Part shown: positions 3,896 to 9,468 of the stretch, in pieces
How positions within the stretch are numbered: the stretch's first letter is position 1
How the letters are laid out: the number at the start of each line of letters is the position of its first letter
NCBI GenBank assembly: GCA_965116475.1
Contig: OZ220691.1
Coordinates: forward strand, 1,824,001 to 1,888,000
DNA: 64,000 nucleotides
Direction: 5' to 3'
Source of the DNA: Gemmatimonadota bacterium
GTDB taxonomy: Bacteria; Gemmatimonadota; Gemmatimonadetes; Palauibacterales; Palauibacteraceae
The notes under the pieces: model-generated
Told to the model about the DNA's origin: nothing
The model's input: only the letters and a program-made list of their open reading frames with translations
Databases searched by the model: none
Made by a program: the position numbers and the translations under genes

Positions 3896-3965
3896 CGTTT
3901 CATCGCTGTTGCGTATCGTTTCACGTCGAGCTATGATCGGCGCATGGATAGCCATGATCGTTTCA
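3896..3965 (+). promoter_or_regulatory. sigma70-like promoter (TTGCGT-17-TATGAT) for a probably leaderless AAA ATPase mRNA, overlapped by three CGTTTCA boxes
   Basis: -35 at 3909-3914, -10 at 3932-3937, ATG at 3944 with no SD. CGTTTCA at 3896, 3917 and 3959. Confidence 0.55.
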
Positions 3966-5092
3966 TGCCGGAGCTGTTTCGTATCGTTGGAGGCGCACTT
4001 CGTCTCGACGTGAAGCGTGTTCGAAACTACACCGATCACCTCGCGGACAAACTCGAAAAGGAAGGAGACCATAGGACCGCCACCCGGCTACGGCAGCTTC
4101 TCGCTGAGACGGATCGAACTCTACGCCCAGCGGGCACGACGGCTCAAGCCCTACCCGTTGACACCGAGAGCCGATTCCCGCTCTTGGAACGGGCGTCATC
4201 ACCCGATCAGCCCGTGATACTCAGTCCCACGGCGTGGGAGGTAGTTCGCGAGTTCATCAGCGTCGCCAAGAGTCATGCGATACTAGAGGCCGAAGGGGTG
4301 AATTCCCCCTTGAGCCTCATGCTTCATGGGCCTCCGGGCTGCGGTAAGACGCTCCTCGCCCACCATATCGCCCAAGATCTTGATCTTGAGATGTTCACCG
4401 CCCGGCTAGATGGGCTAATCTCATCTTACTTGGGGAGCACCTCGAAGAACATCCGTGCGCTGTTTCAGTTCGCAAGTGAACGTCCTTGTGTCCTTTTTTT
4501 GGACGAGTTCGATGGGATCGCGAAGCTGCGAGGGGACACGCTCGAACTCGGCGAACTCAAGCGCGTGGTGAACAGCTTCCTGCAGAATTTGGACGGCCTC
4601 GAGCCCCACACGGTGATCATCGCCGCCACCAACCATCAAGAGCTCTTGGATCGAGCGGTGTGGCGCCGATTCGCCTACCGCCTCGAATTGCCCTATCCGT
4701 CGCGAAATGAACGGCGGGAGATGTGGTCAACTTTCCTCGGCGACCTCGGTGCCCCCACCCGGGATCTCACCGTACTGGCTGATCTTTCAGAAGGCTTTTC
4801 GGGGTCTGACATTCACGAAGCCGCTCTTCGCCTGCGACGGCAAGAGATCGCCTTGGCGAAGCCGGCTCGCTTCCGGGATGCATTCCGGGCCCTTCGCCAG
4901 CTTGCGGTGGGAGATCCTAACTCGCGTAGTTTTCTCTCGGGTCTTTCTGACCTAGGCCTGAGCGAACTCGCATCCGTACTCCGGGCACGTAATCCTGAGC
5001 TCTACTCCTTTCAGACGATCGCTCGGCTCTTGGGGGTTTCGAAGGCCACGGCTTTCCGCCTGACCGACCGCGAGGAGGAGGACGATGGCTGA
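3944..5092 (+). CDS. AAA+ ATPase, IetA-like, with C-terminal helix-turn-helix
   Basis: Walker A GPPGCGKT, Walker B LFLDEFD, ELGELKRVVNSFLQ, AATNH and LDRAVWRRF. C-terminal SFQTIARLLGVSKATAFRL is HTH-like. Overlaps the S8 gene. Confidence 0.88.
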   Translation: MDSHDRFMPELFRIVGGALRLDVKRVRNYTDHLADKLEKEGDHRTATRLRQLLAETDRTLRPAGTTAQALPVDTESRFPLLERASSPDQPVILSPTAWEVVREFISVAKSHAILEAEGVNSPLSLMLHGPPGCGKTLLAHHIAQDLDLEMFTARLDGLISSYLGSTSKNIRALFQFASERPCVLFLDEFDGIAKLRGDTLELGELKRVVNSFLQNLDGLEPHTVIIAATNHQELLDRAVWRRFAYRLELPYPSRNERREMWSTFLGDLGAPTRDLTVLADLSEGFSGSDIHEAALRLRRQEIALAKPARFRDAFRALRQLAVGDPNSRSFLSGLSDLGLSELASVLRARNPELYSFQTIARLLGVSKATAFRLTDREEEDDG

Positions 5093-8309: not shown

Positions 8310-9026
8310 ATGAGCCTGGACACGCGAACAACGGCGGCTCTCGGGATCGAACTGATGGAGCGGCTGCGATCCCTGCATTACTGTATCGTGGGCTGCGGTG
8401 GGACCGGAGCGACCTTCGCCGAAATGCTCGTAAGGACTGGTGCGACACGGCTCACGTTAATAGATGGCGGGACCGTAAAGAAGTCCGATCTCAATCGGGT
8501 GTTCTCTTTTGCCGTACAGGACGTAGGAGAGCCGAAGGTGGAGGTCCTCCAAAGGCGGCTTAGAGCCGTTGGCCGACCTGAGCTCGAACTACACGCCCTG
8601 TGTGACAGCTTTAGACGACCAGACCAGATACTTGATGGTCACACGCTTGGTCAGAGCGTTCGGGACGCGGTACATGACGCCGATGTTGTGTTTGCCGCGA
8701 CCGACACCAATACATCAAGAATTGGCATCGAGGAGCTTTGCCGGAGCAAGCTACGGGGGATGTTGCTTTGCTGCGGTGTGGAAGTCGACCGGAAGGCCGG
8801 AGTTTATAGATATGAATGTGCTTGGTCACCTAGGACACCGCCCGAACGGGAGGACGTTCAGGGTTACGGTCCGGAGAATGCCTCGTTCGCTTCGATCGTC
8901 CTTGAGGCGACTGCCGTCGCGTTCACTATGCTGCTCAGCCACCTGAAGTGTGACGGTAGCCAGTTCAATCGTTACGGCAAGCGTTACGATGCGACCTTCG
9001 CACCGGTCGAAACGCCCGTTCCGTGA
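8310..9026 (+). CDS. ThiF/E1-like adenylyltransferase
   Basis: IVGCGGTG, LTLID..TV..SDLNR, GEPKVEV and AATDT..SR. Lacks the MoeB/ThiF Zn-binding CxxC pairs. Has an E..GYG...ASFASIV segment. Confidence 0.85.
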   Translation: MSLDTRTTAALGIELMERLRSLHYCIVGCGGTGATFAEMLVRTGATRLTLIDGGTVKKSDLNRVFSFAVQDVGEPKVEVLQRRLRAVGRPELELHALCDSFRRPDQILDGHTLGQSVRDAVHDADVVFAATDTNTSRIGIEELCRSKLRGMLLCCGVEVDRKAGVYRYECAWSPRTPPEREDVQGYGPENASFASIVLEATAVAFTMLLSHLKCDGSQFNRYGKRYDATFAPVETPVP

Positions 9027-9468
9027 ACGTCCAGTGACAATACACATGAGTATTTGGCGGCCAGGACCGCTCGGAGTCGCGACCCACAATGACTCCGTCA
9101 ACGATGGGCACGAAATGCCTGTGGAGCAGCGCGACGCACCTCCTCGGTCGGTCGATCAATAGCGTTTCGAGCGTATCGATGTCAGTGGAGTAATCGCTGT
9201 CGACCCTAAGGTACTTTAAAGCGATCGCGAACTCCTTGTTCGTGACGCCGCCGAAAGGCCAGTTTTTCGAAGCTAAGTTGATAGCTTCAACGATAAGCGG
9301 CTCGGGAATAGACGGGACGGCCCAGTAAAGAGACGACAGGGCGCAGTCGTGGTGACCTTGGCCTAACTGTGTCGGGCCCTTCGTATGCCGGTCCCATGCG
9401 GCTACGGAAATCTGATCGCGAATCCATTGGAGCCGGAATAGGGACAGCCGCCACCACGAAACCGACAT
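8965..9468 (-). CDS. Putative papain-fold (C39-like) cysteine peptidase
   Basis: Q.GQGHHDCALSSL (Gln...Cys) and HFVPIVDG (His...Asp). SD GGAG 6 nt before ATG 9468. 3' end overlaps ThiF by 62 bp. Confidence 0.5.
   Translation of the reverse strand: MSVSWWRLSLFRLQWIRDQISVAAWDRHTKGPTQLGQGHHDCALSSLYWAVPSIPEPLIVEAINLASKNWPFGGVTNKEFAIALKYLRVDSDYSTDIDTLETLLIDRPRRCVALLHRHFVPIVDGVIVGRDSERSWPPNTHVYCHWTFTERAFRPVRRSHRNACRND

Follow-up and report, generated by a model that had tools for sequence, protein, structure and literature searches.

Do an IetAS-like ATPase and protease and the E1-like enzyme encoded shortly downstream of them belong to a single defence system, or do two systems lie next to each other here? 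The question is raised by positions 3944 to 9468 of a 64,000-nucleotide stretch of DNA from a Gemmatimonadota bacterium (assembly GCA_965116475.1, contig OZ220691.1, positions 1,824,001 to 1,888,000), the whole of which is referred to below as the window. A reading of the letters alone (the sequence-only reading) had described five co-oriented genes at this place, followed by a convergent gene with a Cys-His-Asp pattern, and had suggested that they may form one tag-and-degrade or tag-and-activate system in which a conjugation module extends IetAS. All six open reading frames (ORFs) are present where that reading had put them, and the locus has the following features:

3944-5092, plus strand: IetA (PADLOC, Pfam AAA)
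5085-7418, plus strand: IetS (PADLOC, Pfam Peptidase_S8)
7419-7488, no strand: intergenic gap of 70 bp that separates IetS from p150; a GGAG ribosome-binding site precedes the p150 ATG
7489-7941, plus strand: p150, candidate modifier (tag), with no family match and a conserved tail
7939-7941, plus strand: TGA stop codon of p150, in frame with p120 (from alignment with relatives)
7942-8304, plus strand: p120, candidate E2-like protein with an invariant Ser91
8310-9026, plus strand: ThiF, minimal E1-like adenylating enzyme of about 238 residues (Pfam ThiF)
8965-9468, minus strand: p171, candidate papain-fold (C39-like) cysteine peptidase (fold model, conserved H-D-C)

The spacing that had been reported is also borne out: the gap is -8 bp between IetA and IetS, 70 bp between IetS and p150, 0 bp between p150 and p120 and 5 bp between p120 and ThiF, the last figure holding for a ThiF start at ATG 8310 (from GTG 8295 it is -10 bp). 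The p171 gene is convergent to ThiF and overlaps its 3' end by 62 bp, and on the minus strand the upstream limit of its ORF is 9468 or 9480. The less GC-biased codon usage that had been noticed is confirmed by the GC content at third codon positions (GC3), which is 0.62-0.70 for all six genes, whereas the amidohydrolase and symporter genes on the flanks have values of 0.935 and 0.940.

We think it reasonably probable that the locus holds two independent units that adjoin each other within a defence island gained by horizontal transfer: an IetAS pair, and a conjugation cassette that is related to the Bub operons and built with different parts. The four genes of this cassette (p150, p120, ThiF and p171) look like a ubiquitination-type tagging system whose tag lacks the ubiquitin fold, a variant not yet described. 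To our knowledge, all E1/E2 conjugation systems characterised so far (eukaryotic, archaeal, Bil and Bub) use a beta-grasp tag. If the assignment is true, E1/E2 chemistry can be uncoupled from the beta-grasp fold, the definition of a ubiquitin-like system would become wider, and three unannotated families would gain a function: p120 with 90 representative clusters, p171 with 108, and the branch of DUF1508/YegP to which p150 belongs. For annotation, the lesson is that genes adjacent to IetAS in a defence island need not be part of the same system.

The IetAS pair and the cassette in related loci

When the first two genes are compared with the known defence families, their identity becomes clear. 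IetA is matched by PADLOC model PDLC02196 at 5e-119 (residues 8-378 of 382) and by Pfam AAA at 1.3e-31, and its translation shows a Walker A motif (GPPGCGKT) and a Walker B motif (VLFLDEFD). IetS is matched by PADLOC model PDLC02200 with E=0 (1121 bits, residues 4-776 of 777) and by Pfam Peptidase_S8 at 2.2e-25, and its translation shows the Asp, His and Ser motifs VVDSG, HGTFV and GTSFS. To judge from their translations, positions 3944-7418 encode a full-length, co-oriented and overlapping IetA and IetS pair with intact motifs, that is, a standard two-gene IetAS, in line with the IetAS-like assignment of the sequence-only reading; IetAS is reportedly the defence system of Gao et al. 2020. Two points set this pair apart: the scores lie under the NCBIfam equivalog cut-offs (373.5 bits against 510 for IteA, 496.6 bits against 900 for IteS), and the cassette downstream is absent from the other IetAS loci examined. 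The closest IetS in the plasmid collection (NC_016108.1, 57% identity) belongs to an IetA-IetS pair that is followed by RelE/CopG, with no cassette. A search of the 70 bp between IetS and p150 revealed nothing that resembles a promoter or a terminator, and when this gap is compared with the intergenic regions upstream of p150 in relatives only the ribosome-binding site aligns.

Relatives of the cassette were collected by running a profile of 21 p150 relatives against a one-genome-per-species collection, which gave eight loci (L001-L008) from two Binatia, two contigs of one Pseudomonadales metagenome-assembled genome (MAG), and members of the Bryobacterales, Vicinamibacterales, Paracoccaceae and Halieaceae. 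All eight carry p150, p120, ThiF and p171 together and in the same order, and because it recurs in every one of them the arrangement exceeds chance. The ratio of nonsynonymous to synonymous substitution rates (dN/dS) is 0.13-0.36 in the unsaturated pairs for each of the four genes, and all four are under purifying selection. The sequence-only reading had named beforehand, as part of the result that would speak against it, a failure of the E1 module and IetAS to co-occur elsewhere; neither IetA nor IetS was found in any of the eight loci, for which 1,052 bases of upstream sequence were available in L002 and at least 8.6 kb in each of the other seven, and the plasmid IetAS lacks the cassette. 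What stands of that reading is a putative tagging module with a candidate peptidase, the module resembling an E1 with an E2-like partner and the peptidase a papain-fold, C39-like one; the coupling to IetAS, and with it the single tag-and-degrade system, is not supported.

A further feature of the related loci is a divergent regulator, which lies upstream of the cassette on the opposite strand in seven of the eight and combines a helix-turn-helix (HTH) with an M78 domain. The two parts are fused in four loci (L001, L003-L005) and split in three (L006-L008), and the divergence of the regulator tracks that of the cassette. It matches PADLOC capP at 9e-63, 2.7e-32 and 6.7e-31, and the fused forms match RmrA at 1e-44 to 1e-56. 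No homologue of this regulator was found in the window (best E 0.11). The neighbours of the related loci comprise type I restriction-modification, MmeI, Mrr, dGTPase, phage-defence candidates (PDC), an integrase and transposases; those of the cassette in the window are IetAS and, further on, a NotI-type restriction endonuclease, Dcm and Vsr.

Three observations on individual relatives are worth recording. The contigs of the Pseudomonadales MAG (L002 and L006) carry two divergent cassettes, whose p150 is 66% and 40% identical to that of the window; the L002 cassette is fused and the L006 cassette (8604-10575) is split, and MAG binning could mix genomes. In L007 (10463-13816), an IS66-family transposase (Pfam 7.7e-40) is inserted between p120 and ThiF and the C-terminus of p120 has diverged, so this copy is probably inactivated. 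Finally, an extra ORF of 166-235 residues follows the HTH-M78 regulator in three of the seven loci that have one (L001 8274-8774, L003 8273-8773 and L005 7105-7812); its copies are 37-88% identical, and their only match is a weak PIN-like one (0.0017).

The candidate tag, conjugation enzymes and peptidase

The p150 protein gave no match in Pfam, PADLOC, NCBIfam or PHROGs. Its database relatives (n=34) share an invariant tail, and the most conserved part of the protein is its last 28 or so residues (IKWDPPEADPAY..EKETDET.IEGLPGS), which are acidic and end in Pro-Gly-Ser (PGS). Two DUF1508/YegP-like domains precede the tail. For the fold we used the protein of L003 (10001-10816), in which p150 and p120 are fused: its AlphaFold2 model (32-row alignment, mean predicted local distance difference test score, pLDDT, 71.5) has two N-terminal beta-beta-beta-alpha units, followed by a disordered tail and then by an alpha/beta domain at the C-terminus that is modelled with less confidence. 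The tail has a pLDDT below 50 in this model and is probably disordered in p150. Among structures in the PDB, the p150 part is matched by E. coli YegP (2k8e, prob 1.00, template-modelling score TMt 0.65) and also by SO3888, 2k49, and Pfam DUF1508 is detected in two distant fused relatives at 6.4e-11 and 2.5e-12. No beta-grasp is seen in the L003 fold model of the p150 part.

The junction between p150 and p120 is informative in its own right. In five of the eight related loci (L001-L005) the two form a single ORF of 271-275 residues, and where the window has its TGA they have GGN or AGG, both sense codons. The TGA of the window, L007 and L008 stands immediately after Pro-Gly-Ser, and in L006 the stop comes one codon later (TGG-TAG); p120 is kept in the p150 frame in all four split loci, the window included. 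Among the 34 p150 relatives, 15 end exactly at PGS, 9 continue into sequence like that of p120, and the other 10 comprise fragments and different forms. Since a natural stop falls exactly at PGS, this point marks the most likely cut site of the fused forms, a case in which naturally split and fused forms mark a likely processing site without experiment. Two other relatives of p150, P0027 and P0028 (47-48% identical), have about 75 other residues at the C-terminus in place of the PPEADPAY...PGS tail, and Pfam does not match this extension; they may be the DUF1508-plus-beta-grasp ubiquitin-like proteins (Ubls) reported for Bub operons and would then link both kinds of cassette.

The E1-like enzyme has Pfam ThiF (1.1e-27) as its sole domain, and its ORF is open from GTG 8295, with ATG 8310 aligning with the start of its relatives. 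All adenylation motifs are present and invariant (GCGGTG, LNR, K81, D137-x-N139 and R142). When a profile of the family is run against PDB chains it retrieves Uba1, TcdA, UBA5, MccB (1.1e-12), PaaA (2.3e-10), ThiF and BubCD (1e-9), and the PADLOC Cap2 'E1-E2' models match residues 28-178 only, which form the adenylation core (4e-14). Beyond the last core strand lie Cys175 (EC.W.P) and Tyr191 (GYG), both found in 13 of 13 sequences, four fused forms among them. The plasmid collection gave partial matches to unrelated ThiF/TcdA genes, with no more than 45% coverage in the 10 matches listed and none reaching 80%.

A dimer of ThiF was then modelled together with p150, each with its own alignment, in three runs and with three controls. 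The interaction prediction score from aligned errors (ipSAE) between dimer and p150 had a median of 0.77 (runs 0.81, 0.75 and 0.77), and the best of the three controls reached 0.01. In the calibration, the 0.77 mark was met by 116 of 157 solved complexes and by 2 of 215 mismatched pairs, which applies only roughly here, and the score may partly reflect likeness to already solved E1-substrate complexes. The runs share at least 95% of their contacts, with a pLDDT of at least 80 for the partner. Residues 139-150 of p150 contact the E1 Gly loop (33, 35-38), D137/N139, R142 and residues 159-163, 172-182 and 188-192. The model supports a p150 tail that threads into the active site of the E1, as expected for the tail of an E1 substrate.

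The start of p120 is ambiguous, GTG 7942 abutting the TGA of p150 and ATG 7957 being used by the database copy (115 residues); the residues between the two starts are homologous to the linker of the fused forms. No family match was obtained in Pfam, PADLOC or NCBIfam, even at E<=10, and none in PHROGs. A full HMMER scan with the p120 profile yielded 90 representative clusters, of which 41 were covered by the Pfam scan; among these 41 are four p120-ThiF fusions (P0153, P0179, P0215 and P0225, 365-375 residues) and two DUF1508-p120 fusions (P0216 and P0220). Conservation was counted over 73 aligned p120-like proteins of 100-165 residues: Ser91, which sits in P-[YF]-S, is kept in all 73, W57 in 72, Y77 and K/R55 in 71 each, H116 in 59 and C56 in 58. 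Because Ser91 is kept in 73 of 73 and Cys56 in 58 of 73, the invariant candidate for the nucleophile is a serine and not a cysteine. The best named fold match of p120 is BubB: the p120 part of the L003 model, a region with a pLDDT of about 60, finds Citrobacter BubB (9eae_C) at rank 4 (prob 0.85, TMt 0.53, E 0.25). Two other candidates were rejected. A CxCxxxC-like string had suggested that p120 is DUF6527/BubE, and those cysteines are not conserved and there is no Pfam match; Atlas leads to aspartyl-protease-like clusters (0.82) lie below the tool's threshold of 0.9 and were dropped.

The convergent gene encodes p171, a stand-alone protein of 167 residues with an N-terminal helix and no ABC transporter. 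No match was found in Pfam (nine family members, E<=10), PADLOC or NCBIfam, nor in PHROGs for the window copy, and none in the plasmid collection; the L006 relative has a weak match to phrog_3754 (0.0027), and none of the 108 relatives has a Pfam domain or a name. The residues H40-D41-C42 are invariant in nine of nine sequences, and H-F and G-x-D occur in all eight that are full-length, which makes Cys42, His118 and Asp131 the candidate catalytic triad. In the model of positions 8968-9468 (pLDDT 82.6) Cys42 lies at the N-terminus of a helix and His118 at the start of a strand. The best named PDB matches of this model are PCAT1 (4ry2, prob 0.80), ComA (3k8u, 0.75, TMt 0.52) and LahT (6mpz, 0.60), with E values of 0.09-0.5. 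Against BFVD it has 13 matches with E<=1e-3 and template-modelling scores (TM) of 0.4-0.68, all of them small phage proteins, one being named 'Thioesterase domain-containing protein' and the others uncharacterised or nameless; lower in the list come a 'Peptidase C39 domain' protein (E 9.7e-3) and a Josephin protein (E 4.6e-2). An Atlas lead (0.95) points to phage clusters in which 15-32% of members have DUF261, a lead only, with no Pfam or PHROGs match for the p171 of the window. Phages may encode peptidases related to p171, possibly as counter-measures. The p171 gene is convergent in seven of the eight loci, but in L002 it is read in the same direction as ThiF, with a 4-nt overlap at the ThiF stop; this looks like an ordinary rearrangement. 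An invertible p171 segment was considered and rejected, since a search of the window for flanking inverted repeats gave none that convinces (17 nt at 76% for the best spanning pair).

Comparison with known systems and weighing of the readings

In the literature searches, operons of this kind were found only in 10.1101/2024.11.21.623953 and 10.1101/2024.11.21.623966. According to the accessible parts of the first, Type I Bub operons make Ubl and E2 as one pre-protein (BubAB), which the JAB domain of BubCD cleaves behind a conserved Gly, and in Type II operons it is the E2 and the E1 that are fused (BubBD); catalysis uses a Tyr in the E1 and a Ser in the E2, the latter accompanied by Lys plus His in the Type II E2 domains (10.1101/2024.11.21.623953). 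The same parts place a DUF6527 protease, BubE, which uses a Ser-His dyad, in all Bub operons, and associate CapH+CapP with 31% of them and CapH+CapP or CapW with 39% (10.1101/2024.11.21.623953). Seven Bub Ubls are reported, in the accessible portion of the second preprint, to have tandem DUF1508 domains before a single beta-grasp (10.1101/2024.11.21.623966).

The cassette shares much of this organisation. A pre-protein of candidate tag and E2-like protein that resembles BubAB is a single ORF in five of the eight relatives, the genes being separate in the window, and four p120 representatives are fused to the E1 in the manner of BubBD. Like the Bub E2, the E2-like p120 has an invariant Ser with Lys and His nearby and no invariant Cys; the E1 is of a minimal ThiF type and has an invariant Tyr in what is probably the crossover region; the operon includes a gene for a candidate peptidase; and regulators of the CapH/CapP type and a setting of mobile elements and defence islands recur, the regulator, which is no defining trait of Bub operons, in seven of eight relatives and not in the window. 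The tandem DUF1508 at the N-terminus is likewise seen in some Bub Ubls, as far as the accessible text of the preprint goes. There are differences as well. Instead of a beta-grasp, the candidate tag p150 has a tail in which about 25 residues, the last of them Pro-Gly-Ser, are conserved; instead of JAB/JAMM there is a separate candidate cysteine peptidase of papain fold (C39-like); the E1 of the cassette keeps an invariant Cys175 that BubCD lacks; and p120 is without the S-x-H motif of Type I BubB. No JAB was found in the window genes or the neighbouring ORFs of the eight loci, and no DUF6527 in the window genes, in 104 neighbouring ORFs of the eight loci (E<=1e-5) or in the p120 and p171 family members (E<=10). 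Having no beta-grasp, JAB or DUF6527, three features that define Bub, the cassette is therefore filed not as a Bub operon but as a Bub-like variant. This also qualifies the remark in the sequence-only reading that no described system has such a composition: set beside what is accessible of the two preprints, the E1 module does resemble Bub/6E operons, and the lack of beta-grasp, JAB and DUF6527 keeps it apart from them.

Other systems share single features with the cassette. The C39 domains of ComA, PCAT1 and LahT have the same order and spacing of Cys, His and Asp as p171, and C39 double-glycine peptidases follow a GG/GA/GS cleavage rule into which a p171 cut after Gly-Ser would fit; the substrate of p171, however, would be the tail of a folded protein and not a leader peptide. 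Bil and the Cap2/Cap3 proteins of type II cyclic-oligonucleotide-based antiphage signalling systems (CBASS) also have E1/E2-type chemistry in antiphage operons, and the Cap2 models match the ThiF core. In contrast to these, the window has no JAB, beta-grasp tag, cGAS/DncV-like nucleotidyltransferase (CD-NTase) or E1 of the architecture with inactive adenylation, active adenylation and cysteine domains (IAD-AAD-CYS); neither CD-NTase nor JAB was found among the window genes with Pfam and PADLOC. Pupylation (Pup/PafA) works in a like manner only, in that its tag is recognised through a disordered acidic C-terminal tail and not through a ubiquitin fold; the Pup ligase resembles glutamine synthetase and not an E1/E2 pair, and homology between the two systems was not found.

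From the gene content, conservation, fusions, folds and predicted E1-tail contact obtained here we infer the chemistry, the cleavage, the existence of a target and a role against phages along the following lines. The tag would be p150, mostly made as a p150-p120 pre-protein that p171 would cut behind Gly-Ser (...LPGS|G...); the window has its stop codon at the cut position, which would make this cleavage needless. The minimal E1 would bind the acidic tail of p150 and adenylate its C-terminal carboxylate, after which the tag would move to a crossover residue of the E1, the invariant Cys175 or Tyr191; Ser91 of p120 would next receive it as an oxyester and hand it on to a target protein, from which p171 may also remove it. 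In the relatives, the genes would normally be expressed once M78 has cleaved the HTH repressor after DNA damage or infection, the CapH/CapP-type regulator pointing to induction by DNA damage or phage; the cassette of the window would have lost this regulator and come to lie directly behind IetS. As a tentative proposal, possible though not one we would call probable, the cassettes may represent a third branch of bacterial ubiquitination-like systems with a tag that lacks the ubiquitin fold: a tandem-DUF1508 tag activated through its acidic PGS tail by a minimal E1, a Ser-type E2, maturation or removal by a C39-like peptidase, and a CapH/CapP-type switch that responds to DNA damage.

Several points weigh against this assignment. 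We know of no characterised E1 substrate of this kind that lacks a beta-grasp and a C-terminal Gly, and p150 has neither and ends in Ser. The E2 call for p120 depends on a weak fold match (E 0.25) in a low-confidence region (pLDDT about 60), there is no sequence-level link from p120 to any E2, to BubB or to Pfam, with a profile search of PDB chains at chance level only, and BubE has no solved structure, so that the PDB fold search is blind to a BubE-like fold for p120. Nor does p171 have a sequence-level match to C39 (Pfam PF03412, or PDB chains, among which its profile hits are no better than chance), and all of its PDB fold matches have E above 0.05. The sample is eight loci, and the pattern PPEADPAY misses divergent relatives. 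Because no Bub operon has given phage protection so far, according to the accessible parts of the preprint (10.1101/2024.11.21.623953), the defence role of the cassette is only contextual. Lastly, the cassette of the window lacks the usual regulator and no terminator is predicted after IetS, so it may be co-transcribed with IetAS.

One rival, that of the sequence-only reading, is that IetAS and the E1, E2 and peptidase genes form one integrated system whose conjugation feeds or gates the IetS protease. The shared orientation over a distance of 70 bp with no predicted terminator, the similar foreign codon usage of IetAS and cassette, and an absence of the usual regulator that may leave the cassette dependent on IetAS transcription here are all consistent with it, and IetAS variants with a recruited third gene, the helicase-bearing ietHAS, are described in the accessible part of the Nucleic Acids Research (NAR) 2026 paper on IetAS variants (PMC13069673). 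Set against this, IetA and IetS are missing near all eight related cassettes, the closest plasmid IetAS is without the cassette, the cassette has its own conserved regulator in relatives, and the words 'ThiF' and 'ubiquitin' do not occur in the accessible part of the same paper (PMC13069673), which leaves an integrated system very improbable in our view. Were the cassette instead a silent or decaying remnant beside IetAS in the defence island, with no present function, the missing HTH-M78 regulator and its promoter region, the lack of any promoter-like site found, and the relative L007 with its IS66 transposase and diverged p120 3' end would all fall into place; yet none of the four ORFs in the window is broken and each retains all the residues that are invariant in its family, and the stop at PGS, being common to 15 of 34 database relatives, is therefore a normal form and not damage. 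We regard a remnant as improbable.

The remaining alternative concerns p120, which might be no E2 but a Ser-His(-Lys) hydrolase like BubE/DUF6527, an adaptor or a target, with the E1 being the only enzyme to act on the p150 tail, for example by adenylating its C-terminus, after which direct transfer, cyclisation or thiocarboxylation would follow in the manner of MccB, PaaA or ThiS/MoaD. The lack of any p120 sequence match to an E2 speaks for it, as do an invariant Ser and a conserved His that recall the dyad of BubE, a protein absent from the PDB and hence invisible to the fold search, and the matches of the ThiF profile to MccB and PaaA. On the other hand, DUF6527 matches none of 13 p120 members (E<=10) and none of the 41 scanned among the 90 representatives (0.01), p120 does not conserve the four cysteines by which BubE binds Zn, the best named fold match is the E2 BubB, and the fusions of p120 with the tag and with the E1 mirror the places of the E2 in BubAB and BubBD. 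A C-terminal Ser also fits neither MccB chemistry, which uses Asn, nor ThiS chemistry, which uses Gly-Gly. Taken together, we consider this alternative unlikely, and we retain a Bub-related tagging cassette beside an independent IetAS pair.

Surroundings of the locus

The genome has a GC content of about 70%, which dips to 0.55-0.61 at about 4000-9500 and again at about 10000-12900. A tRNA, an Rfam family and flanking direct repeats were sought at the ends of the island, and none was found. Between the two low-GC blocks lies a QueF (preQ1 synthase) gene (9551-9964, minus strand) with a GC content of 0.69 and a GC3 of 0.85; no preQ1 riboswitch or other Rfam family was found at positions 1-16000 of the window. 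Either two insertions took place around a host gene, or QueF was captured by the island. The second low-GC block (10066-12868, minus strand) encodes a restriction endonuclease of the NotI family (Pfam 2.7e-42) together with a C5 cytosine methyltransferase (9.6e-67) and the mismatch endonuclease Vsr (6.1e-28); judged by these family matches, it is a complete type II restriction-modification module plus its repair partner, Vsr.

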